Origin: an uncultured bacterium
GTDB taxonomy: Bacteria; Actinomycetota; Acidimicrobiia; Spongiisociales; ZC4RG35
Assembly (NCBI GenBank): GCA_963753285.1
Contig: CAVWBT010000003.1
Coordinates: 225,039-289,038 of the forward strand
Reading direction: 5' to 3'
DNA length: 64,000 nt
A program made the translations under genes and the position numbers. Numbering within the stretch: the first letter of the stretch is position 1; each line of letters starts with the position of its first letter. The notes below the pieces were generated by a model. The model saw only the letters and a list, made by a program, of their open reading frames with translations. It had not been told where the DNA came from and ran no database searches. Below, in pieces: positions 5,264 through 57,501 of the stretch.

Positions 5264-6157
5264 TCATCCGAATCGTCCGGTGATGTACTGCTCGGTCTCT
5301 TCGTGCTCCGGTGTCGTGAAGATCTTGTCTGTGTACCCATACTCCACGAGCCGACCGGTACGCATGCCTGCGTCGTTGACGTCGACAGAGAAGAACGCGG
5401 TCCGATCCGAGATGCGCGCCGCCTGCTGCATGTTGTGAGTGACGATGATGATCGAGTAGTCGTTCTTGAGTTCCTGCATCAGCTCTTCGATGCGCAGCGT
5501 GGCGATGGGATCCAGGGCCGAGGCAGGCTCGTCCATCAGCACGACATCCGGATTGGTGGCGATCGCCCGTGCGATACAGAGTCGTTGCTGCTGGCCTCCC
5601 GAGAGGGAGTAGCCACTCTCGGGCAGCTTGTCCTTCACCTCGTCCCACAAGGCGGCCTGCCGGAGCGCTCGCTCGACCAGATCGGAGAGTTCACCCTTCG
5701 AACCCTTGAAGCCATTGATCTTCGCTCCCCATGCGACGTTGTCGAAGATCGACTTCGGGAAGGGGTTCGGCTTCTGGAACACCATGCCGATCCGACGACG
5801 AACCTCGACGGGGTCGACGTCGTCGGAATAGATGTCGGTGTCGTTGTAGATCACCGTGCCTTCGACACGGGCGGACGGGATGAGATCGTTCATCCGGTTG
5901 AAACACCTCAGCACCGTCGACTTCCCACACCCCGACGGACCGATCAGTGCGGTGATCTCGTTCTTGCCGAACCTCATCGTTACGTCACGGACGGCTCTGA
6001 ATTCGCCGTAGTAGACCCCGAGACCCCGAGCCTCGATGACCGCGTCCTCGATCTGCATCGATCTGGTGTCGTCGCCTGTCGAGCGCATTCGGGTCGTGAT
6101 GTCGATTGGGCGATCGGATGCTCTGCTCATGGCGGGTGCGGTCTCGGTGTCGGACAT
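5264..6157 (-). CDS. pstB: Phosphate ABC transporter ATP-binding protein PstB
   Basis: Walker [13 protein letters not shown] signature [14 protein letters not shown], Walker B VLMDEP; start taken at MSDTE. Confidence 0.93.
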
Positions 6158-6159
6158 CT

Positions 6160-7569
6160 TCAGGCTCTCCTGGAGTATCGGTTTCGGAGTATCACGGCGG
6201 CTGCATTGAGAGTCAACAGGAGAACGAGCAACACGAGGATGGCCGCAGCTGCGATGTTGCGGAACTCCTCCTGGGGCAGCGAGGTCCACTGGAAGATCTG
6301 GATCGGCATCGCCGTGTAGTTCGAGAAGGGGCCGGTCGGATCCGAGGTGATGAACCCTGCCGCACCGACCACGATCAGCGGCGCCGTCTCACCGATTGCC
6401 CGGGCGACGGCGAGGATCGCACCTGTGAGGATGCCTGGAAGCGCAACCGGCAGGACCTGGCTGCGAACGGTCTGCCACCTGGTTGCCCCCAGCCCGAGGC
6501 CGGCCTGTCGGAGCGAGTTGGGGACCGCCTTGAGCGCCTCCTGGGCGCTGATGATCACGACCGGCAGGATCAGCAAGCCCAGGGTGATGCCACCCGAGAG
6601 GATCGTCCGGCCGTTGCTCGCCGCCCCATCGCCGAGGAAGAGCGAACCGCTGGTCAGCGGCTCGAAGGTGCGCACGAGCACGGCCAACCCGAGCATCCCG
6701 TAGATGATCGAGGGGACTCCTGCGAGGTTGTAGATGTTCGTCTGGATGAACTCGTTGAGCCGACTCGGCTTGGCGAACTCGACGAGATAGATGGCGGCGC
6801 CGACCCCGACCGGCACCGCGAACAGCATCGTGATGAGCACGAGATAGGTCGAGCCGAGGATGGCAGTGCGAATCCCGGCGAGCTCGGGGGTGGAGTTCTG
6901 GGGGGATCGGATGAAGTCGAGGTTGAGCCACGCCCTCCACTCGAATCTCACCTCATCTGCGGTGTAATCACCGAATCGCTGGGGGGAGGTCTCGAATGCG
7001 TCGAGCACGGACCGCTCGAATCCCTGGCGGTCGAACAACGACGGGACCAGATCATTCGAGGCGATCACGTCCGGTTGGACGACCCGCTCGCGAACCAGGG
7101 CGAGCACGTCGGCCTGGTTGCGGATCCCGCCGGTGCAGCCTGCTGGAGGCTCGTCCGAGGCGCAGATCTCGTCCCATTTCTGCTGGGACTCGAACACGAG
7201 CCGGTCGGGGTAGAACCGCTGCTCGCGCTCGAGCCGGCGCCCGACACCGCTCGAGACGGCACCTTCGAGAAGACCGACGAGCTGGTCCTTGTCGAGGTCC
7301 CTCAGCGATGTGGTTTGGGGGTCGAGGCCCAATTCCGCCACGACGTCTTCGGGGTTCTGCGCGTTGACGATGGCGACGAGCCCGAAGGCGTCGTTGATGA
7401 CGGTGTAGAGCAACGTGAACAATGCCAGGACGGCGATGATCAGCGCGAGCAGGAAGCCGCTCTGCGCCAGGAAGGATTTGCGGCTGCGCCGATTGAGTAG
7501 TGCGACGAATTCGTCGTCGGTTGGGTACAGATCGCGCGGCTCGACCTTCTCGGGTGCGGTGGCGGTCAC
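6160..7569 (-). CDS. pstA: Phosphate ABC transporter permease PstA (with large extracytoplasmic insertion)
   Basis: Permease core with EAA-like loop ([25 protein letters not shown]); placed between pstC and pstB. Confidence 0.88.
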
Positions 7570-8537
7570 TCGTACACCTCTCTGAACCGCTTCACGAAGC
7601 GACGACTCAGGATGTTGAGGCCGAGCGTCATGAAGAACAGCGTGAGCCCGATGGCGAAGATCGAGTTGTAGTCGATGGTGTTGTAGCTGAGGTCTCCGCT
7701 GGAGATCCGGACGATGTGGCCGGTCATGGCCTCGCCCGGCTGGAACGGATTGAGGATGTAGCCGAAGAGCGAGTCCTCGGTCAGGTGAAAGTTCCGGGGC
7801 GCCGCCCCAGAAGCCAACGCAACGACCATGGTCTCCCCCACCGCCCGTGACATCGCCACGACGAACGCGGCCGCAATGCCTGAGAGGGCGGCGGGAAGCA
7901 CGATTCGGGTCGACACCTCGAGCTTCGACGCACCGAGCCCGTACGCCGCCTGTCGGAGCGAATCGGGAACGGCGTGGATGGCGTCTTCTGACAGCGAACT
8001 GACCAGCGGGATGATCAGAATCCCCACGACGATGCCGGCGGACGCGACATTGAAGAACCCTACGACGTTGTCACCGATCACCGACCGCAGGAGAGGCGTC
8101 ATGAAGGTCAAAGCGAAGAACCCGTACACCACGGTGGGGATTCCGACGAGCACCTCGAGCATCGGTTTGAGGATCTGGCGGACTCGCTCCGACGCGTACT
8201 CGGACAGGTAGATCGCAGAAGCGAGCCCCAGTGGGAGCGCGACCATCATCGCGATCAGGCTGATGAGCACCGTTGAGAGGATCAGCGCCCAGATACCGAA
8301 GGATCCGGCTCCGGGCTGCCAGACGGTTCCGGTGAGGAACTCGGCGACCGAGACCCGCTCGTCCTGGAAGAAGAGCAGCGATTCCTTGCCGAGTTCGTAG
8401 AGGATGCCGAAGGTGGTCGCGATCGACACGACGCCGCACAGGAACAGCGCTACTCGGATGAGCAGCTCAGCCGGCCTCGATCGCTTCCGAAGCGACATGG
8501 CGAGGGCGCCGGCTGCTGCCGGGGTATCCGTCGTCAT
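7566..8537 (-). CDS. pstC: Phosphate ABC transporter permease PstC
   Basis: Multi-TM permease with conserved loop (EDAIHAVPDSLRQAAYGLGASKLEVSTRIVLP); overlaps pstA by 4 bp. Confidence 0.9.
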   Translation of the reverse strand: MTTDTPAAAGALAMSLRKRSRPAELLIRVALFLCGVVSIATTFGILYELGKESLLFFQDERVSVAEFLTGTVWQPGAGSFGIWALILSTVLISLIAMMVALPLGLASAIYLSEYASERVRQILKPMLEVLVGIPTVVYGFFALTFMTPLLRSVIGDNVVGFFNVASAGIVVGILIIPLVSSLSEDAIHAVPDSLRQAAYGLGASKLEVSTRIVLPAALSGIAAAFVVAMSRAVGETMVVALASGAAPRNFHLTEDSLFGYILNPFQPGEAMTGHIVRISSGDLSYNTIDYNSIFAIGLTLFFMTLGLNILSRRFVKRFREVYE

Positions 8538-9862: not shown

Positions 9863-10546
9863 TCAGTCGACCCGATCCACCTTGTCCTCGTCCCAATAGT
9901 CGAGGCGATCGAGCGGCATGACGACGGCGGTCATCACGTTCATGAGGTGCGCCGTGATCCGCTTGAGGTACCGGTTCAGCAGCGCTCTCGGGACAGCCGG
10001 CCCGGCAGACGAACCCTCACGCACGAGGGTCGAGACCTCGTCGTCGAAGTCCGACGTCCACTCGTCCATCTGGGTCAGCCTGGCAGTTGCCTGCTCGGCA
10101 TTCCGCTCGGAGAAGATGACCGCCGTCTCGTTGATGAGGTCCTGAGTGCGCGCGAACCGATCTGCCCACATCGCCTCGTCGGGTGTTCCTTTCAACATGA
10201 ACCCGTCGGTGGTCAGATCCCAGATGTTCTTCGAATAGTCACCGACTCGTTCGATGTCCTTGATGATCGACATGTACACCAGCATGAGCGGGTAGTCGGC
10301 CGCACCGGCCACACCGGCGTGGATGATCAGTTCCCTGCGGATCGAACGCTCGCCCTTGTTGACCTGTCGGTCCGACTTGCGGAGATCCTTCCCGATCTCG
10401 GCGGGATCGACCCGCCCGAAGACGGCATCGGTGGCGAGACCGAAGGTCGTGTTGTTGTCGGCGAGCATCTCCTTCACGCTCTGTTCGATTCTCTCGAGAG
10501 AACCCTCCGAGCTTGACCTGAAGAAATCGAGCACCATGTGACTCAC
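9863..10546 (-). CDS. DUF47/PhoU-like phosphate-transport regulator (YkaA-type)
   Basis: 227-aa helical protein paired with a Na/Pi cotransporter gene immediately upstream on the same strand (8-bp gap). Confidence 0.75.
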   Translation of the reverse strand: MSHMVLDFFRSSSEGSLERIEQSVKEMLADNNTTFGLATDAVFGRVDPAEIGKDLRKSDRQVNKGERSIRRELIIHAGVAGAADYPLMLVYMSIIKDIERVGDYSKNIWDLTTDGFMLKGTPDEAMWADRFARTQDLINETAVIFSERNAEQATARLTQMDEWTSDFDDEVSTLVREGSSAGPAVPRALLNRYLKRITAHLMNVMTAVVMPLDRLDYWDEDKVDRVD

Positions 10547-13912: not shown

Positions 13913-14283
13913 GGAGGGCTCGCTCGCTGCGCTTCGCGGCGTGTCATCGCCTTCGGCGGCGTGTCTTCCGGCCTATGGGGCCGGAGCGTGTCTTCAAGCC
14001 TGGCGGCTTGAGCGTGTCTTCGCCTTCGGCGGCGTGTCCGCGACCTCATGTCGACAGCGCGCCATGAGGCGGATCGAACGACGCGTCGACTCTGAGCGCA
14101 TCGCAATGCTCGAAGCGACGCAGGTCGCGGAGAAGCTCACGAAGTGAAGATACGCTCACGGAGTGAAGAAACGCTCTGCGGAGGCCCCCTGGGGCCGGAG
14201 CAGAAGAGACGCTCCGAGCCACTGGCGAGGAAGACACGCTGCCAAGCGAAGCGAGCTCAGCGAGCGAGCTCAGCGAGCGAGGC
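13913..14283. repeat. 371-bp structured intergenic element with two degenerate inverted arms carrying multiple GCGTGTCTTC-like decamers in opposite orientation
   Basis: Left arm 13913-14040 has about five forward decamers (GCGTGTCTTC, GCGTGTCATC, GCGTGTCCGC); right arm 14141-14283 has four reverse-oriented degenerate copies (GAAGACACGC, GAAGATACGC, GAAGAAACGC, GAAGAGACGC). Each arm carries a CCGGCC-N5-GGCCGG mini-palindrome; termini are GGGCTCGCTCGCTG and CAGCGAGCGAGGCC (13 of 14 complementary). The centre is the palindrome CCTCATG-N12-CATGAGG. Confidence 0.5.
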
Positions 14284-14881
14284 CACCGAGCAGGAAGCGC
14301 TCGAGTTCGGCGGCGACCTCGGGGTAACGGGCTTCGGGGCTCTCGGCGCTGATCAGGATCCGGGCGGCCGACATGATCGTGTCCTGCATGAACCGGCCGG
14401 CGATGTCGACGGCCATCGGACGCAGCTCGCCTCGTTCCACGGACACTCGATAGGCGCCGACCATGTCCATGGCGAGCTCGGAGTGTGCTGCGCGGATCCG
14501 CTCCTGGGCCTCCGACGACAGCCGGGGCAGCTCGCGGTGGAGGATCAAGCCCATCACCGGATCGGAGACGACGAAGTGCACAGTCGACTTCGCGAGCTCC
14601 ACGAGGCGCTCCGTTCCCTCCGTGGAATCAAGGCGTGCGATCAAGTCATCCACGACCCCGGGCAACCGATCCTCGACCAACGAGGCGATGAGGTCGTCTT
14701 TGTCTCGGAAGTACTCGTACAGCGTTGTCCGACCGATGCCTGCCTCGTGAGCGACCTCGCCGAGTGAGATGTCGGCCGACCCGATCTCCTCGAGCAGACT
14801 GTGGGTCGACTCGAGGATCTCTCGACGCGTCTTGAGCTTGTGCGCCTCGATGTTCTCGGCTCGAATCCTCGGCATATCCAC
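14270..14881 (-). CDS. TetR/AcrR-family transcriptional regulator
   Basis: N-terminal HTH (ILESTHSLLEEIGSADISLGEVAHEAGIGRTTLYEYFRDKDDL); the last codons overlap the right terminus of the inverted-repeat element. Confidence 0.85.
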   Translation of the reverse strand: MDMPRIRAENIEAHKLKTRREILESTHSLLEEIGSADISLGEVAHEAGIGRTTLYEYFRDKDDLIASLVEDRLPGVVDDLIARLDSTEGTERLVELAKSTVHFVVSDPVMGLILHRELPRLSSEAQERIRAAHSELAMDMVGAYRVSVERGELRPMAVDIAGRFMQDTIMSAARILISAESPEARYPEVAAELERFLLGGLAR

Positions 14882-45184: not shown

Positions 45185-46096
45185 GTGCCGATCGAACACA
45201 TCGCCTCAGGGAAGGTTCGGGAGATCTACGAGATCGACTCCGAGCACCTGCTGTTCGTGGCGACCGATCGGATCTCCGCCTACGACGTGATCATGAACGA
45301 GCCGATTCCCGACAAGGGCAGGGTGCTCACTCAGCTCTCGGCCTACTTCTTCGAGCTCCTCGACGTGCCGAACCACCTGGCGAAGCTGTCGATCGAAGAG
45401 ATCGACATCGGACTGGATCGCGAGTGGCTCACTGGACGCTCGATGGTCGTCCGCAGGGCGGAGATGCTCCCCATCGAGTGCGTCGTTCGCGGCTATCTGT
45501 ACGGATCGTCGTGGCGGGAGTACGCCGCCGGAGGCGGACCGACGACCGAGCATCTCCCCGACGGTCTGGTCCAAGGCTCGAAACTGGAGCAACCGCTCTT
45601 CACTCCTGCGACCAAGGCGGAGTCCGGGCACGACGAGAACCTCTCCGAGGCGCAGGCGCGGGCACTCGTCGGCGACGAGACCTACGAGCACCTCCGGGCA
45701 CAGTCGATCGCCGTCTACGAGCGTGCGGCCGCCCACGTCGAGTCCCGGGGCCTGATCATCGCAGACACGAAACTCGAGTTCGGGATCATCGACGGCGAGC
45801 TGACCCTGTGCGACGAGGTCCTCACCCCCGACTCCTCCCGTTACTGGCCCGCGGAGAAGTACGCGCCGGGGTCGGTCATGCCGAGCTACGACAAGCAGTA
45901 TCTGCGGGACTGGCTCGACTCGACCGGTTGGGATCACACGCCACCGCCGCCGACGTTGACGGACGACGTCGTCGACAACGTCCGCTCCCGGTACATCGAG
46001 GCGTTCGAGATCATCACCGGGCGCACCTTCGATACGCCAGTACAGGCAGGCTTTGGAGCATCACAAACCCAACCGACGCTGGAGACGAAGGCATGA
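45185..46096 (+). CDS. purC: Phosphoribosylaminoimidazole-succinocarboxamide synthase
   Basis: Long-form SAICAR synthetase (GKVREIYE..., LIIADTKLEFG); GTG start with TAGCCT 7 nt upstream. Confidence 0.9.
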   Translation: MPIEHIASGKVREIYEIDSEHLLFVATDRISAYDVIMNEPIPDKGRVLTQLSAYFFELLDVPNHLAKLSIEEIDIGLDREWLTGRSMVVRRAEMLPIECVVRGYLYGSSWREYAAGGGPTTEHLPDGLVQGSKLEQPLFTPATKAESGHDENLSEAQARALVGDETYEHLRAQSIAVYERAAAHVESRGLIIADTKLEFGIIDGELTLCDEVLTPDSSRYWPAEKYAPGSVMPSYDKQYLRDWLDSTGWDHTPPPPTLTDDVVDNVRSRYIEAFEIITGRTFDTPVQAGFGASQTQPTLETKA

Positions 46097-46335
46097 AAGT
46101 GACCGTGCATGTGACTCGACGACCCGAGATCGCCGACCCGCAGGGCAAGGCGGTGTCTCGAGCACTCGCAGACCTCGAGTACCACAATGTTCGCCAGGTG
46201 CGGATCGATCGCACGATCCACCTCGAGATCGACAGCGACGACGTGGAAGAGGTCCAGTATCAGGTGGACTCGATGTGCAACGAGGTTCTCGTGAACCCCG
46301 TCCTCGAGGACTACCGCGTGGAGATCAACACATGA
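46093..46335 (+). CDS. purS: Phosphoribosylformylglycinamidine synthase subunit PurS
   Basis: 80-aa PurS-like (VLPKPGILDPQGKAV equivalent: RRPEIADPQGKAVSRAL); overlaps purC and purQ by 4 bp each. Confidence 0.85.
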   Translation: MKVTVHVTRRPEIADPQGKAVSRALADLEYHNVRQVRIDRTIHLEIDSDDVEEVQYQVDSMCNEVLVNPVLEDYRVEINT

Positions 46336-46961
46336 CGGCAGCGGTGGTCGTGTTTCCCGGAACGAACTGCGAACACGACGTGGTCTATGCCCTCGAGCGC
46401 GTCGGGGTCGACAGCGAACTGGTGTGGCACCGCGAAACGGATCTGAGCCGATTCGACTCGGTTGTCCTTCCGGGCGGGTTCGCTCATGGGGACTATCTGC
46501 GGGTGGGCGCCGTTGCCAGGTTCTCCCCCGTGATGGCCGAGGTGAAGCGCATGGCCGAGGAAGGAAGTCCGGTTGTCGGGATCTGCAACGGGTTCCAGAT
46601 CCTGTGCGAGGCCGGCCTCCTGCCGGGAGCGCTCATCGCCAACCGCGACCTGGCGTTCATCTGCCGCGAGGTCGAAGTCGAGGTGACCGACACGAACACC
46701 GTGTTGACCAGGAACGCCGAACTCGGCCAGCGGCTGCGCATCCCGCTCAACTCCTTCGACGGCAACTGGGTCGATCCCAGTGGCACCGGGCGGGTCGTCA
46801 TGCAGTACGTCGACGATCCGAACGGCAGCCAGGGACGCGCCGCCGCGGTCGCCAACCAGGCCGGCAACGTCGTCGGCATCATGCCCCACCCCGAGCGGGC
46901 CATCGAAGAACTACTCGGATCCGCCGACGGCAGAGTCCTGCTCGAGTCGATGTCCACCTGA
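46332..46961 (+). CDS. purQ: Phosphoribosylformylglycinamidine synthase glutaminase subunit PurQ
   Basis: Class-I glutamine amidotransferase: catalytic GICNGFQ and C-terminal HPE (HPERAIE). Confidence 0.9.
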   Translation: MTAAVVVFPGTNCEHDVVYALERVGVDSELVWHRETDLSRFDSVVLPGGFAHGDYLRVGAVARFSPVMAEVKRMAEEGSPVVGICNGFQILCEAGLLPGALIANRDLAFICREVEVEVTDTNTVLTRNAELGQRLRIPLNSFDGNWVDPSGTGRVVMQYVDDPNGSQGRAAAVANQAGNVVGIMPHPERAIEELLGSADGRVLLESMST

Positions 46962-47052
46962 CCGAGCCGACCCGAGAGCACGCTCAGTGGACTTCCTCCC
47001 CTGGACGCGCAACGGGCGCTCGCGGACGCTGTCCACACGGAAGGGAGGTCAC

Positions 47053-47748
47053 ATGCGACGCATCATGGCGCTCGCCTGCCTGGCCGCAGCGGCGTTGCTC
47101 GTGTCCGCATGCACGGTGGGTTCGGGCGAGGTCATCACCGAGACCCGGTCGGTGAGCGGGTTCGACGAGATCGACCTGCGGGGCAGTGGTGAGGTCCGAG
47201 TGACCGTGGACGGGTCCGAGTCGTTGATCATCGAGGCCGAGGACAACATCATCGACGACCTCACGAGCGAGGTGCAGGGCACGACGTTGGTTCTCGGTAT
47301 CGACAGGCCGATCACACCGACCGAGGACATCATCTACACGGTGACGATGGCGGCGCTCGAAGGTGTCGAGATCTCCGGGAGCGGTTCGATCACGGTCACC
47401 GAGTTCGCCACCGACGACTTCTCGGTGGATGTGAGCGGCTCGGGTGCAGCGTCCATCAGCAGCGTGGCCGCCGACACGGTCTTCGTCAGGATCGGCGGCT
47501 CCGGCGCAGTCACGATCAGCGGCGATGCCGGGGCGCTCGACCTGTCGATCAGCGGCTCCGGCGCCTTCGACGGCAACCGGCTCGAGGTGACCACCGGCGA
47601 CGTCGACATCTCCGGCTCCGGAAGCGCAACGGTGAACGTGAGTGAGATCCTCGACGTTCAGGTGAGCGGCTCGGGCAACGTCGAGTATCTCGGAAACCCG
47701 AGCCTCACGGTCGATTCGTCGGGATCGGGCAGCGTTTCGCAGCGTTGA
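47053..47748 (+). CDS. Putative lipoprotein with GSG-rich beta-helix repeats (DUF2807/DUF4097 adhesin-head-like)
   Basis: Lipobox LLVSACT; repeated (I/V)SGSGxxxV units; AAGGGAGG ribosome-binding site 5 nt upstream. Confidence 0.6.
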   Translation: MRRIMALACLAAAALLVSACTVGSGEVITETRSVSGFDEIDLRGSGEVRVTVDGSESLIIEAEDNIIDDLTSEVQGTTLVLGIDRPITPTEDIIYTVTMAALEGVEISGSGSITVTEFATDDFSVDVSGSGAASISSVAADTVFVRIGGSGAVTISGDAGALDLSISGSGAFDGNRLEVTTGDVDISGSGSATVNVSEILDVQVSGSGNVEYLGNPSLTVDSSGSGSVSQR

Positions 47749-47896: not shown

Positions 47897-50152
47897 ATGA
47901 CACAAAACACCGAGCTGGCACCCGAAGAGAACGCACTCCCCGAGGAGCCCACCGACGACACCCCTCCCCCCGTCCATCGCCTGCTCGGTATGACCGACGA
48001 CGAGTACGGGAAGGTCTGCGAGATCCTGGGCCGCGAGCCCCGCTCGGCGGAGCTCGCCATGTACTCGGTCATGTGGTCCGAGCACTGCTCGTACAAGTCG
48101 TCCCGAACCCATCTCGGCCGCTTCCCGACCGAGGCCCCCTGGGTCGTCGTCGGCCCCGGAGAGAACGCCGGCGTCGTGGATCTGGGCGACGGGTGGCTGG
48201 CCGCTCTGCGCATCGAGAGCCACAACCACCCCTCGTTCGTCGAGCCGTATCAGGGCGCGGCGACCGGAGTCGGGGGGATCCTCCGGGATGTCTTCACCAT
48301 GGGCGCCCGACCGATCGCATTGTGGGATCAGATCCGGTTCGGGCCGCTCGACCAGCCCAAGAACCGTTACCTGCTCAACGGCGTGGTCGCCGGCATCGCC
48401 GGGTATGGCAACGCCGTCGGAGTTCCCACGGTTGGCGGCGAGATCGCGTTCGAAGAGTGCTACACGGGAAACCCGCTGGTCAACGTGATGTGCCTCGGGA
48501 TCCTCCGGGAGGACGAGTTGGTGTTGGGGACCGCGGGCGAGCCCGGTTCGATTGCCGTCCTCCTGGGTGCCGCCACCGGTCGGGACGGCATCGGCGGGGC
48601 CTCGGTCCTCGCCTCGGCGAGTTTCGACGTGGAGTCGGGGGCGAAACGCCCGTCCGTCCAGGTGGGAGACCCCTTCGAGGAGAAGAAGCTGATCGAGGCT
48701 TGTCTCGAGCTGTATCGGGAGAAGCTGGTGGTCGGAGTCCAGGACCTGGGAGCGGCCGGGCTGTCGTGCGCGTTCTCGGAGCCGGCCGCCCGGGCGAGCG
48801 CCGGGATGAGCGTCGATCTGAACCGTGTGCACGTGCGCGAGGACGGCATGACGGCACCCGAATTGCTCATGTCCGAGTCACAGGAGCGGATGATGGCCTT
48901 CGTGCATCCCGACAACGTCGACGCGGTGCTCGCCGTGGCCGAGAAGTGGGAGATCGACGCATCCGTCGTCGGCGAGGTGAAAGCCGGCGGCTCACTCGAC
49001 GTGTACCACGACGGCGTGCTCGTCGCCCAGCTGCCCGCCGCCTCGCTGTCCGAGGATGCCCCCAAGTACGACCGGCCGCTCGGCGAGCCGGGATGGATGG
49101 AGGATCTCTGGGCGAACACACTCACCTTCGTCACGCGGCCCGGAATCGCCGACTCGCTGCTCAAGCTGCTCGACGATCCCTCGCTCGCGTCGCCGGCCTG
49201 GGCGTACGAGCAGTACGACCACATGCTGTTCCTGAACACCGTCGTGGGCCCGGGCAACGACGGGTCGCTCTTGCGGATCAAGGGCACGAACAAGGGACTG
49301 GCCGTCTCGACCGACGGCGATGGGCGGCTCTGCTACCTCGACCCGTGGCGAGGCGGCGCCCGGTTGGTGTACGAGGCTGCGCTGAACGTCGCGATGACCG
49401 GTGCAAAGCCGATGGCGGTCGTCGACAACCTGAACTTCGGAAACCCGGAGAAACCCGATGTCATGTGGCAGTTCCGCGAGACCGTCGAGGGCATCTCCGA
49501 GGCGTGCGAGCGCCTGGGAATCCCGGTGGTGGGCGGGAACGTCAGCTTCTACAACGAAACCGACGGGCTCGACATCTATCCGACACCGGTCGTCGGCCTG
49601 CTCGGTCTCGCCGACCCGATGCCCCAGAGCCCGCCGCGCCACGACCGGGTCACCGACGGGATGGAACTCTGGCTCTTCGGACCGGAGTGGGCGATCAACC
49701 TCGCCGGCTCGGCGTTCGAGCGGGTCACGTTCGGTCACGTCGGAGGACGTCCGAGCCCGCCGGACCCCACGATGGCCAAGGCGGCGATCGAGGTCGCGAA
49801 CCGGCTCGCCAACGACGGTCTGAGCCCGGCACTGCACGACATCTCCGACGGCGGCCTGATCATGACCGTGGCAGAGCTGTGCATCGCATCCCAGGTGGGT
49901 GTCACGGCGCGCTACGACGACTGGCGGAGCTTGTTCTGTGAGGACCCCCATCGGTTCGTTGCAGCGGTCCCGACCGAGCACACCGAGGCTGTGGCGGCGA
50001 TCGCCGCCGACGCCGGGCTGCCGGCCTCGCGCATCGGCATCTTCGGGGGCAACGAGATCAGCTTCGAGCGCAAGGGCGCACGCGGCGCCGTGGACCTGGA
50101 GATCGCCACCGAGACGTACCGCAACGCCATCCCCCGCCGCCTCGCACACTGA
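47897..50152 (+). CDS. purL: Phosphoribosylformylglycinamidine synthase subunit PurL
   Basis: 751-aa small-type PurL with duplicated AIR-synthase-related domains ([17 protein letters not shown]; GGNVSFYNE). Confidence 0.95.
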
Positions 50153-50209
50153 TCTGCGCCGGGGCGCCATCTGCGAGGCACCGGACGGCTGATCGGGATG
50201 GGCGATCTC

Positions 50210-52900
50210 AGGCGGTCTCGGCTCTCTTCCACCATCGGACGGTGCCGAAACCGACGACGAGGGCCACGGCAGGCACGGTGAGGATCTGAAGGAGAGAGAC
50301 GGGTGGAGTCCCCGGCGCCCCCCGGCACGGCCATCTGGGGGCGCGGGTCGCGGAGGACGACGCCGAGCGTGCCGTTCGAACAGCACTGGACCTGGTCGAA
50401 GCGATGATGAGCTGAGAGAGATCGCGTCCCCGACCTGGAGCTGCGGGCCGGGTGTCGTCGGAGAGACCAGCGTCGGGTCTGGCGGCAACACGACGGGGCT
50501 CGGGATCGGCGACATCGTGAACACCGCCTCTCGTCTGCAGTCCATCGCCCGCCCGGGCACCGTCTACGTCGGCGAGCCCACTCGTGCCCTGGCGGACTCG
50601 GCGATTCGCTTCGAGTCGGTCGAGCCTCATGATCTGAAGGGCAAGGCGGAGCCGGTCACGGTTGGAGACGGCCACGACTTCGACGACCCGTGGGGCAGGG
50701 CGCACGAGACGCGCGAAGCGCCTTCGTCGGCCGCGAGCCGAACTCCGCTTCGAACGACCACCTCGAACCGACGGCGCACCGCGGCTCGCCTCGTTTCGAT
50801 CGTCGGTGAAGGTGCATCGGGAAATCACGTCCCGCCTGGGAGCTGCGACAGTACGTCGACGACCTGACCGAGACCTTCGACTGGCACCAGGGACGTTCCC
50901 CCGCGTACGGTGACGGCGTGACCCTGTGGTCGTTGGGCGAGATGGTCCGCCAGCGGGCGCGGATCGCCGAGACCGACGACGCACTCAAGTCCCGAACCAA
51001 GTCCAGACCCTCGTCGCCGAGTACTTCCCCGATCCCGACGACCATCGATGGGTCGTCCCTCGGCTTGCTGGTCTCCTCGGTCTCAGCGAGATGCCGGATG
51101 GAGACCGGGCCGATCTCTTCGGAGCAATTCGCACGCTCTTCCAGCGGATCAGCGAACGAGGCACGACCGTGCTGGTACTCGAAGACCTCCATTCGGCCGA
51201 CGAAGGTCTCCTGGACTTCATCGTCGAGTGGTCGAGCGATCACCGCGCCATCGATCTTCGTGGTGACGCTCGCGGTCTTCACTGATGGACCGTGCGCCGG
51301 GGTGGAGCACTGCGCGCCGGGTTGACGTCCGCCCACCTCGGTCCCTCTCGGAGGCCGACTGCGAGCGCTCGTCGAGGGGATGGCTCGGGCATCAGCCGGA
51401 CACCGTCGACCTCGTCGGTTCGGCGGCGGGCTTTCCGCTGTACGCCATCGAGTACGTCCGGATGCTGGTCGCCGGCGGCGACCTCGTTCGGGCCGGCGAT
51501 CGGTACCGACAGGTCGGCACGTCGAGGCTGGCGCAGCCGGACATCCGGCACGATGGTCGTCGCCCGGCTCGACCGACTCCCCTCCCTCGAGAAGAGCGTG
51601 ATCCAGGACGCCGCCGTGCTCGGGCAGTCCTTCACCTTCGAAGGGCTGGCGGAGTCCTCCGACCGGCCGGAAGGCGACCTCCGGCCGGTGCTCGACCGGC
51701 TCGTGCGAGACGAGGTGCTACGCCTCGAACAAGACCCACGCTCGCCCTAGCGCGGCCAATACCAGTTCGTCCAGTCCATGATCCGGGAGGTCGCATACGG
51801 TCGCCGTCAAGGCCGATCGCAGGCAACGGCATCTCGACGTGGCGCGTCAGTTCCAACACCGAGACACCACCGAGTTCGCAGCAATCGTCGCCAGCCACTA
51901 CCTCAGCGCGATCGAAGCGGGTGCGGGCTCCGAGATCGCCGCTGAAGCGCGGCGTGCCCTGCTGGACGCTGCCCGACGGGCGGCCGGTCTCCACTCGCAC
52001 AAGCAGACGCTGACGCTGGTCGAGCAGGCGCTCGAGATGCCTGGCGAGGACCGCGATACGATGCACCTCTGGAGTTGGGAGCCAGCGCAGCCAGCTCGCT
52101 CATGGCCCACGACGTCGCCCTCTCGATGGCAACGAGATCCTCCGAGTGGGCAGAGGCACATGGCGACACAGCGGATCGCACCCGCGCGGCCACTGCATTC
52201 GGCAGAGCGTTGATGACAGCCGAGCAGCCGGCCGACGCTGCGGCGACCATGGATCCTCACCTCGCGCCTGGGCCAGACCCGGGACCAGAGCAGTTGCGGC
52301 TCGGGGCTGAACTCGCCCGAGCGAACCTGCTGGGAGGAGCCGAGCACCGCGCCGCCGAAGTCGCCCGTGACACGTTGATCGCCGCCGAGGCGGCCAGGAA
52401 CGCAGCGATCGTGGTGGAGGCGATGACACGCGTGGCACGGCACTGCGATACGTGGGCAGGGCCCACGAGGCGATCGCACTCCTGCGGAGGCAGTTCGACT
52501 CGTCGCCGAGCTCGGCTCCCCGACTGCGGAGGCGAGGGCGCTCAACAACTACATCGTCACCAATGCGAGGAACGGTCTCCAGGCGAACCGGGACCTCCTC
52601 GAGCGGTTCGACGCCGTCGCCGAACGAACCGGGGCCCTCAACCTCATCGTCCGATCAGCCGGCCGACTCGGCGACTGGCTGGCGGCGAACGGCGAGTTCG
52701 AAGCCGCCCAGGATGTGCTCGCAGGGTCGATCTGGATCCGAACGGGCGGTGGGGAGGTCCTCCGCTCGGAGTCGCTGGCGGCGATGGGCCCTCAGCCAGC
52801 CGGATCTTGGCACGTGGCCTTCGACCTGGTCTCGGGGTCGTACGGAAGCGGTGAACCTCGGTGGAGGCGTACACCGCCGGATCCAGGCGACGATGCGTTC
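50210..52900 (+). pseudogene. Multiply frameshifted remnant of an adenylate/guanylate-cyclase - AAA ATPase - TPR (LuxR-associated) regulator gene
   Basis: Class-III cyclase fragments (DAERAVRTALDLVEAM; GIGDIVNTASRLQS) and AAA-ATPase fragments (TTVLVLEDLHSADEGLLDF; SIFVVTLAVF; FPLYAIEYVRML; LPSLEKSVIQDAAVLGQSF). TPR-like helices lie in at least six successive frames between 50290 and 52850. Boundaries are approximate. Confidence 0.55.
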
Positions 52901-52982
52901 CTCGCGATCGCCCCAGGCGAGGCGCTCGAGAAGGCGCTCGAAGCACCCGTCGAGTCCAGGCTCGCCTTCTCCGACGCCTGGG

Positions 52983-53246
52983 TCATCCCGATCCTGGCGT
53001 CGATAGGCTGGGAGACCAATCCATGCTCGAGGCGTCGTGGGATCCTTCGCAGGTGCCGATCGGGAAGTGGTTCGAGGTCTTCGACACGATGTTCCCAGCG
53101 GCCGGCCGGCTTCGAGGGCCGCTTGGAGGAGTCGGCTGCCCAGTTCCTCCGGCGATCTCCTCGACCGTCACGTCATCGAACCCTCGCTCGGTGAAGAGCC
53201 GGAGCGCCTCCTGCTCGAGCCGCCGGCGTGTCTCGGTCGCCGCCAT
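52983..53246 (-). pseudogene. TetR-family regulator remnant (intact HTH start, disrupted after helix 2)
   Basis: MAATETRRRLEQEALRLFTERGFDDVTVEEIA then a 16-aa insertion before AAGNIVSKTSNHFP (corresponding to AAGVSKGTLYHHFP); no recognisable C-terminal domain. Confidence 0.45.
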
Positions 53247-53247
53247 A

Positions 53248-53276
53248 CCAGTGATGTTAGTCACTAACATCACTGG
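53248..53276. promoter_or_regulatory. Perfect 14-1-14 palindrome CCAGTGATGTTAGT-C-ACTAACATCACTGG (AT-rich), 1 nt upstream of the TetR-remnant ATG, 130 nt upstream of the divergent pfkA
   Basis: Read directly; the size and dyad symmetry are typical of TetR-type operators. Confidence 0.5.
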
Positions 53277-53407
53277 TCTGCACGGAGGGCTCCCACACTC
53301 CCCTCGCCGGCGGCGCATCGCGAATCGGGCGGGCGACTCATCGGTGGACGTGGCGCGCAGACGACTCGTTGCTCCGGGTCCGCTCCCAGCGCCTAGCCTG
53401 ATCGGTC

Positions 53408-54532
53408 ATGTCACAGACGATCGGAATCCTCACTGCCGGCGGAGACTCGCCTGGACTCAACGCCGCAATCCGCGCAGTCGGCAAGGCCGCCCAGCGCCAC
53501 TACGGCATGCACGTCATCGGATTCAAGGACGGCTTCACAGGCCTCATCCAGAACCGCCACATCCGGCTCGACGGCGACTCCCTCTCAGGCATCCTCTCGC
53601 GGGGCGGGACCATCCTCGGCACCAGCCGCATCAAAGTCCACAAAGTCGACGTCGGCAACGGCCAGAAGATCGACATGCGTCCAATGATCCAGCGAGTGGT
53701 CGAGGAACATGATCTCGCAGCTGTGGTCTGTCTCGGCGGTGGCGGGACCATGAAGAACGCCCATCGGCTCCACAAGGTCGGCGTGCCGGTCGTGACGCTC
53801 CCCAAGACGATCGACAACGACGTCTGGGGGACGGACACCACCTTCGGATACGACACCGCCATGAGCATCGCAACCGATGCGATCGATCGGCTGCACTCGA
53901 CCGCCCACTCGCATCACCGGATCATGATCGCCGAAGTCATGGGGCACAACACCGGCTGGCTCACCCTCGGCGCCGGGCTCGCCGGAGGCGCCGACGCCAT
54001 TCTCCTGCCTGAGGTCCCGTTCAAGGTTCAGACGGTTGCAGACTCGATCCTCCAGAGGAAGGCCGGTGGCTCGAACTTCTCGATCGTTGCGGTCGCCGAA
54101 GGTGCGATGTCGGCCGCAGACCGAACTCGCCACGACGAGATCCGCAGGCAGATCGACGAGCTCGACGACGACGACGATGACTCCGAGCTGCGCGCCGAGC
54201 TCGAAGATTTCCACGCCGGCCGCAAGCACTCCACAGAGCGACTCGCCGAACAGCTCGAAGAATTGACCGGACTGGAGGCCCGGGTCACGATCCTCGGCCA
54301 CGTGCAACGGGGCGGCTCGCCGTCCACGGCGGATCGTCTGCTCGCCACCCAGCTGGGCACCGCTGCTGCCGACGCCATCGCCGAGGGCACGACCGGCGTG
54401 ATGATCGCTGCTCGGAACGGAGAGGCGGTCCGCGTGCCGCTCGCGGAGATCGCCGGAAACCGGAAGTCGGTCCCGCTCGACCACCCGTGGATCGAGTCGG
54501 CCCGGCGCCTCGGCATCTGCATCGGCGACTGA
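53408..54532 (+). CDS. pfkA: ATP-dependent 6-phosphofructokinase with an acidic approximately 35-aa insertion
   Basis: [35 protein letters not shown]; insertion [23 protein letters not shown]; TAGCCT hexamer 8 nt upstream of the ATG. Confidence 0.9.
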
Positions 54533-54666
54533 CAGTTGGCCTTTGGCTCTTGGCTGCGGGCATCGCATCGACGCCAGGGGCCTCAGGTCGCTTCCAGATC
54601 GAACCCTCCGACAGGGACGCAGAGATGGGGCGCTGTCGTGTCAGCTGAATGGCGGATGGCCACTGG

Positions 54667-55908
54667 CTAGTCGGTCTCGTACTTGTCCCGATAGAGCTGA
54701 TCGGCGGAGCCGACCCAATCGTCTCGTTCGATCCGGCCGGGGAAGGCATCGAGAGCGAGTGTGACGGTCGCGATGTCCTCGGGCGTGAGGTTCGCCACCT
54801 GGAGGAACGAGGTGATCCCCATGCTCTTGAGGAGCTTCTCGATCTTCGGGCCGACACCGTGGATCTTCTTGAGATCGTCGTTCGTGACGTCCCGACCCCC
54901 TGCGGTTCGGGTCGCGATCTCCTTCACCTTCTCCACAGCCACATCCCGTTCGGCTACGGGTTCGACGTTCGATGCAGGAGCCGGCTCGGGGGCAGGAGCC
55001 GGCTCCGCGGCAGGTCCCGGCTCGGGGGCCTCCGGTTCGCCCTGAGCCGCCACCTCTTCCTCCTCCGACCCGGACTCTTCGGGTTCCGCCGCCGGGGTCT
55101 CCTCGGTGACGATGGCGACGTGTTCGACCGGCTCGGACACTGCGACGTCCTCCGGCTCGACCGCACTGGAACCGCGCTCGTCCGACACGACCGACGACGC
55201 GGCGAGCTGCTCGCGCAGGGCGGCCAGCTCCTCGGACTGTCGAGTGATGGTCGATTCGAGTCCGGCGATCGTCGATTCCGATGCGTCGAGTTGGTGCTGG
55301 AGATCGAGTGCTCCCGCTGCCCCGTCTCGCAGCGTGTTGATGGTGTCAATCGCCGCTTCGAGCTCGACCGTTGCCCGGTCCGTCACCTTCTTCGCCTCGG
55401 CGGCACGGAGCCTTGCGTCTTCCTTCGCCCGCTCCGCCTCGACCAGGCGATCTTGGGCAGAGGTCAGCCTGTCTCGCAGGTCGTCGACGGTGCCGAGCTG
55501 GAGACGGAGATCCCCGGCCTCCTTGAGGGCGGCGTCGAGCTGACGCTGGCGATCGCCCAGCTCCGCGCTCAGACGATCGGCGTCTTCGGCACGCTTCCGG
55601 ATGTCGGCCACCGAGACGTCGAGCTCGCTCTTCTCGCCCTTCAGGTTGTCGAACCGGCCCTTCAGTTTCTCGAGCTGCTTCTGGAGGTCCTTGCGCTCGT
55701 CCTTGACCTCACGGATCTGCACGCGCAACGGTTCGAGCTGCGCCTCGGCCTCGTCGGCACGACGGCGTTGGGTGTTGATCTGATCGTCGGTGTGACGGAG
55801 TCGTCGAGCAAAGTCGTCGTTGAGCCGCTTCGACCCGACTCGATCCCACACGAACCAGCCGATCCCGATCCCGACAACCAGTCCGACGATGAACAGCACG
55901 ACTTCCAC
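54667..55908 (-). CDS. Membrane-anchored coiled-coil protein with a Pro/Glu-rich linker and a C-terminal helix-hairpin-helix-like domain
   Basis: N-terminal TM (VVLFIVGLVVGIGIGWFVW), approximately 230-aa heptad-rich segment, PAPEPAPA linker, C-terminal KKIHGVGPKIEKLLKSMGITSFLQVANLTPEDIA. Confidence 0.65.
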   Translation of the reverse strand: MEVVLFIVGLVVGIGIGWFVWDRVGSKRLNDDFARRLRHTDDQINTQRRRADEAEAQLEPLRVQIREVKDERKDLQKQLEKLKGRFDNLKGEKSELDVSVADIRKRAEDADRLSAELGDRQRQLDAALKEAGDLRLQLGTVDDLRDRLTSAQDRLVEAERAKEDARLRAAEAKKVTDRATVELEAAIDTINTLRDGAAGALDLQHQLDASESTIAGLESTITRQSEELAALREQLAASSVVSDERGSSAVEPEDVAVSEPVEHVAIVTEETPAAEPEESGSEEEEVAAQGEPEAPEPGPAAEPAPAPEPAPASNVEPVAERDVAVEKVKEIATRTAGGRDVTNDDLKKIHGVGPKIEKLLKSMGITSFLQVANLTPEDIATVTLALDAFPGRIERDDWVGSADQLYRDKYETD

Positions 55909-56049
55909 TTGACAGTCCTCCCGCAGGCAATCCGAGCGCGTCTTCTGCGATCCCCCGCCCGTAGACGAGTCGAAAGGGACTGTAGGCGGTCGACTCGGGC
56001 TTCGTGTAGGCGATGTGACACCACTTCACCGACGTCATACCCTGCGGCC

Positions 56050-57501
56050 GTGACCAGCAGACCGGTGGCGGCGCCCACCAGTGTCCTCTCCAGAGAGCTC
56101 CTTCCCGCCTCGACCGCGATCTTCTTGACGGTGGCGCTCGCCGCGTTCGAAGGACTGGCGGTCGCGGCGGCACTGCCGGAGGTCGCTGCCGACCTGGGAT
56201 CGGTCGCGCTGCTGCCGTGGGTGATCACGTCGTTCCTCCTCACGTCCGGGGTCGCGACCATCGTGTCGGGTCGGCTGATCGACACGATCGGCGTGAGAAC
56301 GATGTTCCGGGTCGCCGTGATCGTGTTCGCAGGCGCCGGGGTTCTGGCGGCGTTCTCACCGTCGATGGAGGTCATGATCGCGCTCCGAGCGGTGCAGGGA
56401 GCCGGGTCCGGCATGGTGATCGCCGTCGGATTGGCCGCCGTCTCGTTGATCTTTCCACCGCATCTCACGGGGAGGGCGTTCGCCGCCAACTCGACGGTGT
56501 GGGGGGTGATGGGCGTGGCCAGCCCTGCCATCGCGGCCGTGATGCTGACCCAGCTCGATTGGCGGTGGATCTTCCTGATCAATCTGCCGCTCGGCGTGAT
56601 CTCACTGGCCGCCGGCTGGAGAGTGATGCCGCAGAGTCAGGAGCGTTCCGAACACAAACCGATGGACTACGTCGGGACCGGGCTGGCGTTGGTCTTCTCC
56701 GGGGCGGTGCTGTTCGCCGTCAACGACCTCGAGTGGTTCTCGCTCGTGTGGCTGGTGGTCGCGATCACCTCGGCCTTCGCGTTCTATCGGAGAGCCGGAT
56801 CTCGTGAAGCCCCGCTGGTCGAACGGCGGTATCTCTCACACGCACCGTTCGCTCCGCTGGCGTTCGCAATCTCCCTGCTCATCACCGGAGCGATCGCTCC
56901 GAATGCATTCGTTCCGCTGTATGTGAGTGCCGGGCGGCTGGCGTCGGAAGCGACGACGGCATGGTCGGTCCTGTTCTTCACCGTCGGCTGGACGGCCGGC
57001 GCCAACGTGTCGTCGCGGCTGCTCGACACCCGAACCCAGCTCACTGTGATCCGGTACGGGTTCGCAAGCACCATCCCCTCGCTCGTCATCACGGCGATTG
57101 CAGGCGCGCTCTCGTCGACGATCGGTGTTCTCTTCGCTGCGTTGTTCGGTGTCGGCGTCGGTGTCGGCCTCGCGACGAATGCCTCGTTGACGCTGCTGCG
57201 CGATGTCAGCGCACCGCAGGAGATCGGGCGGTCGACGGCAGCCCACCAGTTCTTCCGCAATCAGGGGTTCGCGTTCGGATCGGCGATCGGCGGCGCAGCA
57301 CTCTTCGCCGTCGTCGCCTCGGCCGTCGGCGACCCCGAGCTGGTGAGGAACGTGCTTGCCGGCGACTCGGTGTCCGTTGCCGGCGAGGTCAGTGCGGCGG
57401 TCGAAACCGGGTTCGCTCTGTCGGCGGCGATCGGTGCCGGGATCTCGGCGCTCGGGCTCATCGCATTGAAGCGAGTCGAAGCGAGCACCGAGGCGCAGTG
57501 A
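56050..57501 (+). CDS. MFS transporter (12-14 TM)
   Basis: Hydrophobic repeats with MFS motif region (GRLIDTIGVRTMF); GTG start at 56050 is a guess within a 950-aa artefactual ORF. Confidence 0.78.
   Translation: MTSRPVAAPTSVLSRELLPASTAIFLTVALAAFEGLAVAAALPEVAADLGSVALLPWVITSFLLTSGVATIVSGRLIDTIGVRTMFRVAVIVFAGAGVLAAFSPSMEVMIALRAVQGAGSGMVIAVGLAAVSLIFPPHLTGRAFAANSTVWGVMGVASPAIAAVMLTQLDWRWIFLINLPLGVISLAAGWRVMPQSQERSEHKPMDYVGTGLALVFSGAVLFAVNDLEWFSLVWLVVAITSAFAFYRRAGSREAPLVERRYLSHAPFAPLAFAISLLITGAIAPNAFVPLYVSAGRLASEATTAWSVLFFTVGWTAGANVSSRLLDTRTQLTVIRYGFASTIPSLVITAIAGALSSTIGVLFAALFGVGVGVGLATNASLTLLRDVSAPQEIGRSTAAHQFFRNQGFAFGSAIGGAALFAVVASAVGDPELVRNVLAGDSVSVAGEVSAAVETGFALSAAIGAGISALGLIALKRVEASTEAQ

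Follow-up and report, generated by a model that had tools for sequence, protein, structure and literature searches.

Rv0386, Rv1358 and Rv2488c of Mycobacterium tuberculosis are multidomain regulators in which a class III cyclase domain is followed by an AAA_16 ATPase and tetratricopeptide (TPR) repeats, and a LuxR-type helix-turn-helix (HTH) end is a feature of the mycobacterial cyclase proteins. The autoregulators TetR, QacR and AcrR pair a repressor with an exporter and bear a palindromic operator over their own promoter. Rv1219c (RaaS), Rv1218c and Rv1217c of M. tuberculosis form a set of TetR repressor, ABC ATPase and ABC-2 permease, and a structure of Rv1219c has reportedly been solved. 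Here, we describe an island between the genes purL and pfkA in which remains of a cyclase regulator and of a TetR repressor lie against each other. It belongs to a 64-kb stretch of an uncultured bacterium of the Acidimicrobiia (contig CAVWBT010000003.1, positions 225,039 to 289,038), which is called the window hereafter and to which all coordinates refer unless a contig is named. We are fairly confident in reading this locus as a decaying island, which holds two relics fused by a deletion, the fossil of a TetR operator, and next to it a pfkA gene with its own promoter.

The likeness to the mycobacterial cyclase regulators lies in the domain order of cyclase, AAA_16 and helical repeats, but the copy in the window is dead. 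A LuxR-type HTH end was not seen in the window, where no search was aimed at it, and there is no room for the N-terminal zinc ribbon that many of the homologues carry. With TetR, QacR and AcrR the locus shares a palindrome over the repressor's own promoter and a repressor that goes with an exporter, whereby binding is predicted here and only 36 codons of the repressor remain. With Rv1219c–Rv1218c–Rv1217c the TetR subfamily described below shares the three-gene architecture and the presumed logic, but Rv1219c is not a close relative. The C-terminal domain of the subfamily, TetR_C_14, goes by the name 'MftR C-terminal domain'; the accompanying genes are those of an ABC-2 exporter, however, and not mycofactocin genes. 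The pseudogenes of Mycobacterium leprae are an example of how bacterial genes erode. Such erosion reportedly proceeds with a deletional bias (Mira, Ochman and Moran, 2001 is said to describe it), and the present locus resembles this pattern in that most lesions are small deletions, larger ones account for the lost gene ends and the adjacent genes are unharmed. The difference is one of degree, as the bias is extreme here: 28 deletions face one insertion, and substitutions are few.

The cyclase relic

The gap from purL to pfkA measures 3.25 kb, and its longest open reading frame (ORF) spans 259 aa. A translation stitched together from its fragments matches 6525 homologues of 1050–1180 aa, most of them from Acidimicrobiia metagenomes, nearly all with Guanylate_cyc and AAA_16 domains and many with N-terminal zinc ribbons. 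The best match is P0001 (1087 aa, E = 1.3e-255), which adjoins a glutamate dehydrogenase and a histidine kinase and is considered a paralogue rather than an orthologue because this genomic context is unrelated. A preliminary description of the locus had followed the gene by four marker peptides, and these lie on the plus strand where it had put them: DAERAVRTALDLVEAM at 50359–50406, GIGDIVNTASRLQS at 50502–50543, VLVLEDLHSADEGLLDF at 51169–51219 and LPSLEKSVIQDAAVLGQSF at 51577–51633. Its count of at least six frames has to be corrected, as the fragments run through the three plus-strand frames with many switches between them.

P0001 was aligned to the DNA by a frameshift-aware dynamic programme. 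Its residues 54–1018 are collinear with 50327–53152 at 60.6% identity, interrupted by 29 frameshifts and two in-frame stops, one of which is firm. A profile hidden Markov model (HMM) built from 60 homologues recovers ten ordered segments in alternating frames from 50338 to 52723 (HMM positions 128–939), and 10 of 40 homologues tested match a further piece at 53005–53079/53103, which lies ~85–118 residues before their C-terminus. In Pfam searches on the fragments, AAA_16 is represented by profile positions 97–152 of 167 and Guanylate_cyc by positions 127–178 of 183, the latter at 21.3 bits against a cut-off of 21.9. Hence, the C-terminal third of the cyclase domain alone matches Pfam, while its N-terminal half is degraded and its first ~57 codons, which include no start codon, are barely recognisable. 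Neither the profile nor the dynamic-programme alignment reaches 50153–50337; by eye only, the first cyclase strands appear there faintly and in different frames (AVSALF, HGEDLKERDG).

The number of frameshifts depends on the penalty they are given—29, 12 or 10 at a penalty of 14, 25 or 40, respectively. Of these, 28 of the 29 and all ten robust ones are deletions of 1–2 nt, and the one left over is an insertion. An uninterrupted ORF of ~1050–1180 codons is absent from the sequence, which holds at least ten frameshifts and one firm in-frame stop. The damage extends to the catalytic signatures of the ATPase, where no intact pair of Walker A and Walker B motifs is left: Walker A (GEGGIGKS) is broken by a 1-nt deletion at ~50814, the otherwise invariant leucine behind its GKSR has become proline (GKSRL to GKSRP), and the EDLHWAD region bears F-to-L and W-to-S replacements (EDLHSAD). 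Besides the nonsense codon at 51748, ten replacements fall on columns that are at least 97% conserved. With the surroundings of the frameshifts masked, the pseudogene retains 151 of 169 columns that are at least 95% conserved (89%), whereas in a leave-one-out comparison the homologues themselves have a mean of 98%, with 93% for the fifth lowest.

The TetR stub and the deletion junction

A TetR remnant had been noticed on the opposite strand, and this assignment stands. A minus-strand ATG at 53246 opens MAATETRRRLEQEALRLFTERGFDDVTVEEIA, Pfam TetR_N matches the stub at positions 4–23 of 47, and tblastn with intact members of the family (the TetR of metagenome contig L082, P0210 and P0231) gives 64–68% identity from the start to 53139 and then nothing. 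A complete TetR HTH of helices 1–3 is absent, with homology ending after residue 36, and TetR_C_14 has no match anywhere in the window. The gene had been described as broken after helix 2. The stub carries no frameshift, however, and is simply cut; what follows it is a deletion junction, and the ABC genes that come after tetR in the homologues are absent here.

Homology to the cyclase family is firm as far as 53103 and continues weakly up to 53152, where DNA similarity to the L082 locus also stops. With TetR homology ending at 53139 and cyclase homology at ~53103, the two relics meet tail to tail within the interval between these points. Since the stub stops where the cyclase homology stops, a single deletion has probably joined what were the 3' parts of two convergent genes.

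Two other TetR-like sequences of the window were considered. A match of 15 aa at 52845–52801 on the minus strand (PYDP, E = 0.39) was set aside as noise, as it lies inside firm cyclase homology and at the wrong distance. The intact TetR-family gene at 14270–14881 on the minus strand is unrelated; its N-terminus is 29–33% identical to the subfamily of the stub, and hence it is no candidate for a trans-acting paralogue. A close paralogue of the stub TetR was not found in the 64-kb window.

The palindrome and its TetR subfamily

Directly at the start of tetR, the preliminary description had reported a perfect 14-1-14 palindrome of 29 bp (53248–53276). Its perfect symmetry is confirmed; its length is not, as each arm is longer by one base. 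It indeed sits at the tetR ATG, ending 1 nt from it, with the hexamer TAACAT 7 nt before the start codon. In shuffled windows, ~0.01 inverted repeats with arms of at least 14 nt are expected per window.

An exact-pattern scan of a metagenome collection returned a single contig, L082, on which the 29-bp palindrome recurs unchanged. Directly behind it lie an intact TetR of 185 aa (TetR_N and TetR_C_14), then ABC_tran and ABC2_membrane_4 genes. This TetR is 98% identical to a protein named Microbacterium TetR, and its family comprises 1019 members at E <= 1e-10. Eight further loci were compared, from Actinotalea, Cellulomonas, an Acidimicrobiia metagenome-assembled genome (MAG) and unassigned metagenome contigs. 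The core TGTTAGTSACTAACRT is found upstream of all nine intact homologues, 6–8 nt before the start codon. Including the window, all ten loci share the consensus TGTTAGT[G/C]ACTAAC[A/G]T, with a distance of 6–8 nt from the hexamer TAAC[A/G]T to the start codon, while the flanks differ. The order tetR, ABC ATPase, ABC-2 permease is kept wherever the contig extends, usually with overlapping stop and start codons: six places show the full tetR/ABC_tran/ABC2_membrane_4 cassette (one of them without retrievable DNA), three show at least ABC_tran, and two contigs end too early to show the order. The divergent neighbour, on the other hand, differs in nearly every locus—a second TetR, pntA, a PIN toxin, dcd, a PAS-cyclase, and here pfkA.

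The presence of one core at one distance in all nine intact homologues points to the palindrome as the subfamily's own operator, as the preliminary description had supposed for a TetR protein in general. Judged from this comparison, it is the predicted cognate operator of the TetR_C_14 / ABC-2 subfamily. A TANNNT-type -10 box combined with leaderless mRNA is common in Actinobacteria, and the operator probably overlaps such a box (TAACAT) of a leaderless tetR promoter. A full-text literature search for the core sequence gave no match, and by this search no operator appears to have been described for the subfamily.

The closest solved structure to the L082 TetR is 2OF7, an uncharacterised TetR-family protein (E = 1.3e-19). 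Of the sequence matches in the PDB with E <= 0.001, none is a chain named Rv1219c; Rv1219c was dropped as a close relative, since these matches showed no close relation.

Two members of the set show peculiarities of their own. On L082 the palindrome is longer, with arms of 18 nt that still match perfectly (CATGCCAGTGATGTTAGT / ACTAACATCACTGGCATG, 7355–7391), and lies between two divergent TetR–ABC exporter operons; the second TetR (7402–8127) is of the TetR_C_25 type, so that one site might serve both. On contig L090 (3660–4636), tetR is separated by a gap of 460 nt from an ABC ATPase gene called with 171 aa, compared with ~245 aa elsewhere, and this cassette may be another decaying copy.

The purL–pfkA junction and the pfkA promoter

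A pfkA-based scan of reference genomes yielded relatives of at most 77% identity among the matches listed. In the five relatives compared, the junction holds a different cargo each time: ~100 nt without genes in L006 (5300–5406), two hypothetical genes in L002 (6090–7660), a lipoprotein gene and tdh/kbl in L003 (6344–10001), genes for a thioesterase and PPK2 in L004 (8262–10001), and genes for MarR and an ABC transporter in L009 (7432–10001). The purL–pfkA junction is an insertion hotspot in Acidimicrobiia, with a cargo that differs by genome, and the island of the window is one more lineage-specific cargo that is now eroding—ordinary decay of an accessory island. Neither a cyclase nor a TetR was found between purL and pfkA in these five relatives, and the intact orthologous locus could therefore not be reconstructed.

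The same relatives are informative on the pfkA promoter. A scan of 53000–53480 for the sigma-70 consensus and for terminators gave no match, with a consensus that suits actinobacterial promoters poorly, and for this reason the comparative spacing of TANNNT boxes was used instead. A TANNNT box stands 6 nt before the pfkA start in all five relatives, none of which has the island (L002 at ~7645–7659; L003, L004 and L009 at ~9985–10000; L006 at ~5390–5405; each up to the start), and the window shows its counterpart at 53394–53407. Because the box is kept as in the relatives without the island, pfkA appears to retain its ancestral promoter. Its position 6–8 nt before the start in six of six genomes suggests a leaderless or near-leaderless transcript across the group.

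The preliminary description had considered that pfkA may once have been, or may still be, under TetR-type control. The divergent intergenic region between tetR and pfkA measures 161 nt with the palindrome at its tetR end, and 117 nt separate the palindrome from pfkA's own TANNNT box. As no full repressor is present here and the operator is tied to tetR–ABC operons elsewhere, travelling with them, TetR control of pfkA is unsupported.

Features of the locus

The features discussed so far are collected in Table 1. Intactness of the neighbouring genes, on which the preliminary description had relied, is borne out: purL and pfkA align over their full length to relatives among Acidimicrobiia MAGs at 77–78% identity, and no other shredded region was seen in the window (65.7% G+C), whose remainder holds long coding-like ORFs throughout. 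Rfam gave no match in the island or in the whole window, and no tRNAs were found in the window.

Table 1. Coordinates of the features in and around the purL–pfkA island, as positions in the window.
Feature	Position	Strand	Description
purL	47897-50152	+	Intact ORF of 751 aa; residues 2-749 align at 78% identity to purL of L002; left border of the island
Degraded 5' end of cyclase pseudogene	50153-50337	+	No recognisable start codon; ~25 codons missing internally
Cyclase pseudogene	50338-53103	+	Class III cyclase / AAA_16 ATPase / helical-repeat (TPR-like) regulator; ancestor of ~1090-1160 aa
In-frame TAG	51748-51750	+	Stands in place of a Glu with 98% conservation among homologues (RSPERGQ to RSP*RGQ)
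Deletion junction	53104-53139	.	Tail of cyclase remnant (+) abuts TetR stub (-)
TetR stub	53139-53246	-	36 codons covering HTH helices 1 and 2; helix 3 and the ligand-binding domain are missing
Palindrome	53247-53277	.	Perfect 15-1-15; predicted orphan operator of the dead TetR
Operator core ATGTTAGTCACTAACAT	53254-53270	.	Found in 10 of 10 loci
TAACAT	53254-53259	-	-10-like box within the operator core, for a probably leaderless tetR promoter
TAGCCT	53394-53399	+	pfkA's own -10-like box, 8 nt before ATG
pfkA	53408-54532	+	Intact; Pfam PFK, E = 7e-96; right border of the island

Beyond the island, a 322-aa protein of the DUF2807 type (adhesin head GIN domain) is encoded at 46780–47748 between purC and purL. 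The gene purC itself (SAICAR synthetase) occupies 45185–46096, and purS and purQ, which are usual at this place, were not seen in the interval 45185–47748. Downstream of pfkA, a plus-strand ORF of 950 aa (54649–57501) appears to be largely spurious upstream of ~56100, with its MFS_1 match limited to the last ~466 codons. Its spurious part overlaps a minus-strand ORF of 413 aa (54667–55908), whose product is acidic, is probably a coiled coil and matches helix-hairpin-helix at its C-terminus.

Alternative explanations

The frameshifts might be artefacts of assembly or consensus calling—arising, for example, where bases were dropped because co-assembled strains differ—and the large gene might be intact in the cell. 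Several of our observations fit this explanation and weigh against decay: the ratio of indels to substitutions is high, the frameshifts are almost exclusively deletions, and a strong coding signature remains, with a G+C content at third codon positions (GC3) of still 0.81 in the restored cyclase frame next to the considerable identity to the paralogue. A database protein 100% identical to the pfkA product of the window, P0241, is encoded on an NCBI/ENA contig of 528,897 bp, and further pfkA proteins (P0242–P0253) are 87–92% identical; exact-sequence look-ups with pfkA, purL and P0241 gave no match. A half-megabase metagenome contig suggests a long-read assembly, in which consensus deletions occur. 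Also, the junction varies between genomes and so possibly between strains. Hence, the count of 29 frameshifts may partly reflect errors of consensus calling, made where strains vary in a long-read metagenome assembly, and the extreme deletion bias with its few substitutions means that a contribution of the assembly has to be reckoned with. The distribution and kind of the lesions argue for real decay nevertheless. The frameshifts are confined to 2.8 kb, with none in ~60 kb of neighbouring genes; as the remainder of the window is coding-like, they are local and enriched >200-fold. Frameshift sites are not enriched near homopolymers (24% versus 27% background), in a comparison of low power because the sites can be placed only to within a few bases. 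A G-to-T nonsense change at a conserved glutamate and ten near-invariant replacements are not errors of the indel type, the start codon is gone, ~25 N-terminal and ~85 C-terminal codons are missing, and the adjacent TetR gene is structurally truncated. We thus regard a pure artefact as unlikely and the decay of the cyclase gene as probably real, so that the pseudogenisation of one large cyclase–ATPase–repeat gene, as first proposed, is upheld by its frameshifts, nonsense codon, invariant-residue replacements and truncated ends.

The palindrome allows for other explanations as well. Its survival carries no statistical information, as only ~1–1.5 hits are expected in it if it decays as fast as the pseudogene beside it, and the presumed original ABC genes behind tetR are reconstructed from the homologues alone. 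One of them makes it unrelated to TetR: it could mark the end of an element that is mobile or repeated, or could act in RNA as a hairpin or terminator. It has 45% G+C in a genome of 66% and could form a hairpin. However, it occurs in a single copy in the window—in answer to the concern that it might belong to a repeated element—shows neither a terminator-like T run nor an Rfam match, and its core always lies 6–8 nt away from the start of a tetR gene of one subfamily, at ten loci in several actinobacterial groups, which makes this explanation extremely improbable. Alternatively, the orphan palindrome might still be functional, be it as a landing site where a paralogous TetR_C_14 repressor encoded elsewhere in the genome modulates pfkA, or be it as an additional, constitutively derepressed upstream pfkA promoter formed by the mirror-image TAACAT (53265–53270, plus strand). 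If a paralogous repressor did land there, phosphofructokinase expression would be tied to the ligand of an exporter system. The palindrome has stayed perfect while the adjoining DNA decayed, its symmetry directs a -10-like box towards pfkA too, and the same palindrome of L082 lies between two divergent TetR–ABC operons. Against this, 31 nt would remain untouched by chance in roughly a quarter to half of cases, the centre of the palindrome is ~146 nt upstream of the pfkA start, pfkA has its own box as in the relatives without the island, the divergent neighbour is unrelated across the nine homologous loci, and the 64 kb of the window hold no close TetR paralogue. A co-opted operator of either kind is hence very doubtful, and we keep to the palindrome as an operator fossil.

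Proposed history of the island

The ancestral island would have consisted of two convergent units: a cyclase/AAA_16-STAND-type/helical-repeat signalling protein of ~1090–1160 aa and a tetR-led cassette, which by analogy with its homologues would have continued with an ABC ATPase and an ABC-2 permease. In the intact cassette, a TetR dimer is predicted to bind TGTTAGTSACTAACRT and thereby to cover the -10 box together with the point where a leaderless tetR mRNA begins. From this position TetR would silence its own gene and the exporter for as long as no ligand releases it. The cyclase gene would have lost its start and gathered 10–29 small frameshifting deletions, the nonsense codon and the replacements of invariant residues. 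Later, a single larger deletion would have removed the last ~85 cyclase codons, the spacer and everything beyond tetR codon 36, and left behind a stub presumably unable to bind DNA or ligand, together with the fossil of its operator and promoter. Meanwhile, pfkA would be transcribed from its own short-leader or leaderless promoter beside the start codon, ungoverned by the palindrome.

Significance

To the earlier picture of the locus, this analysis adds the anatomy of two relics fused tail to tail by a deletion, and an operator predicted by comparison of loci. An annotation of the region should list a pseudogene and a fragment of tetR, and should not place pfkA under TetR regulation. A by-product is this predicted operator, TGTTAGTSACTAACRT, which overlaps a leaderless -10 box and applies to a TetR_C_14 / ABC-2 exporter subfamily that is widespread but uncharacterised. 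The locus itself gives an example of how an accessory regulator dies in a free-living, high-GC actinobacterial lineage—by small deletions and then by the fusion of convergent relics—and it locates this decay at an insertion hotspot between two core genes.

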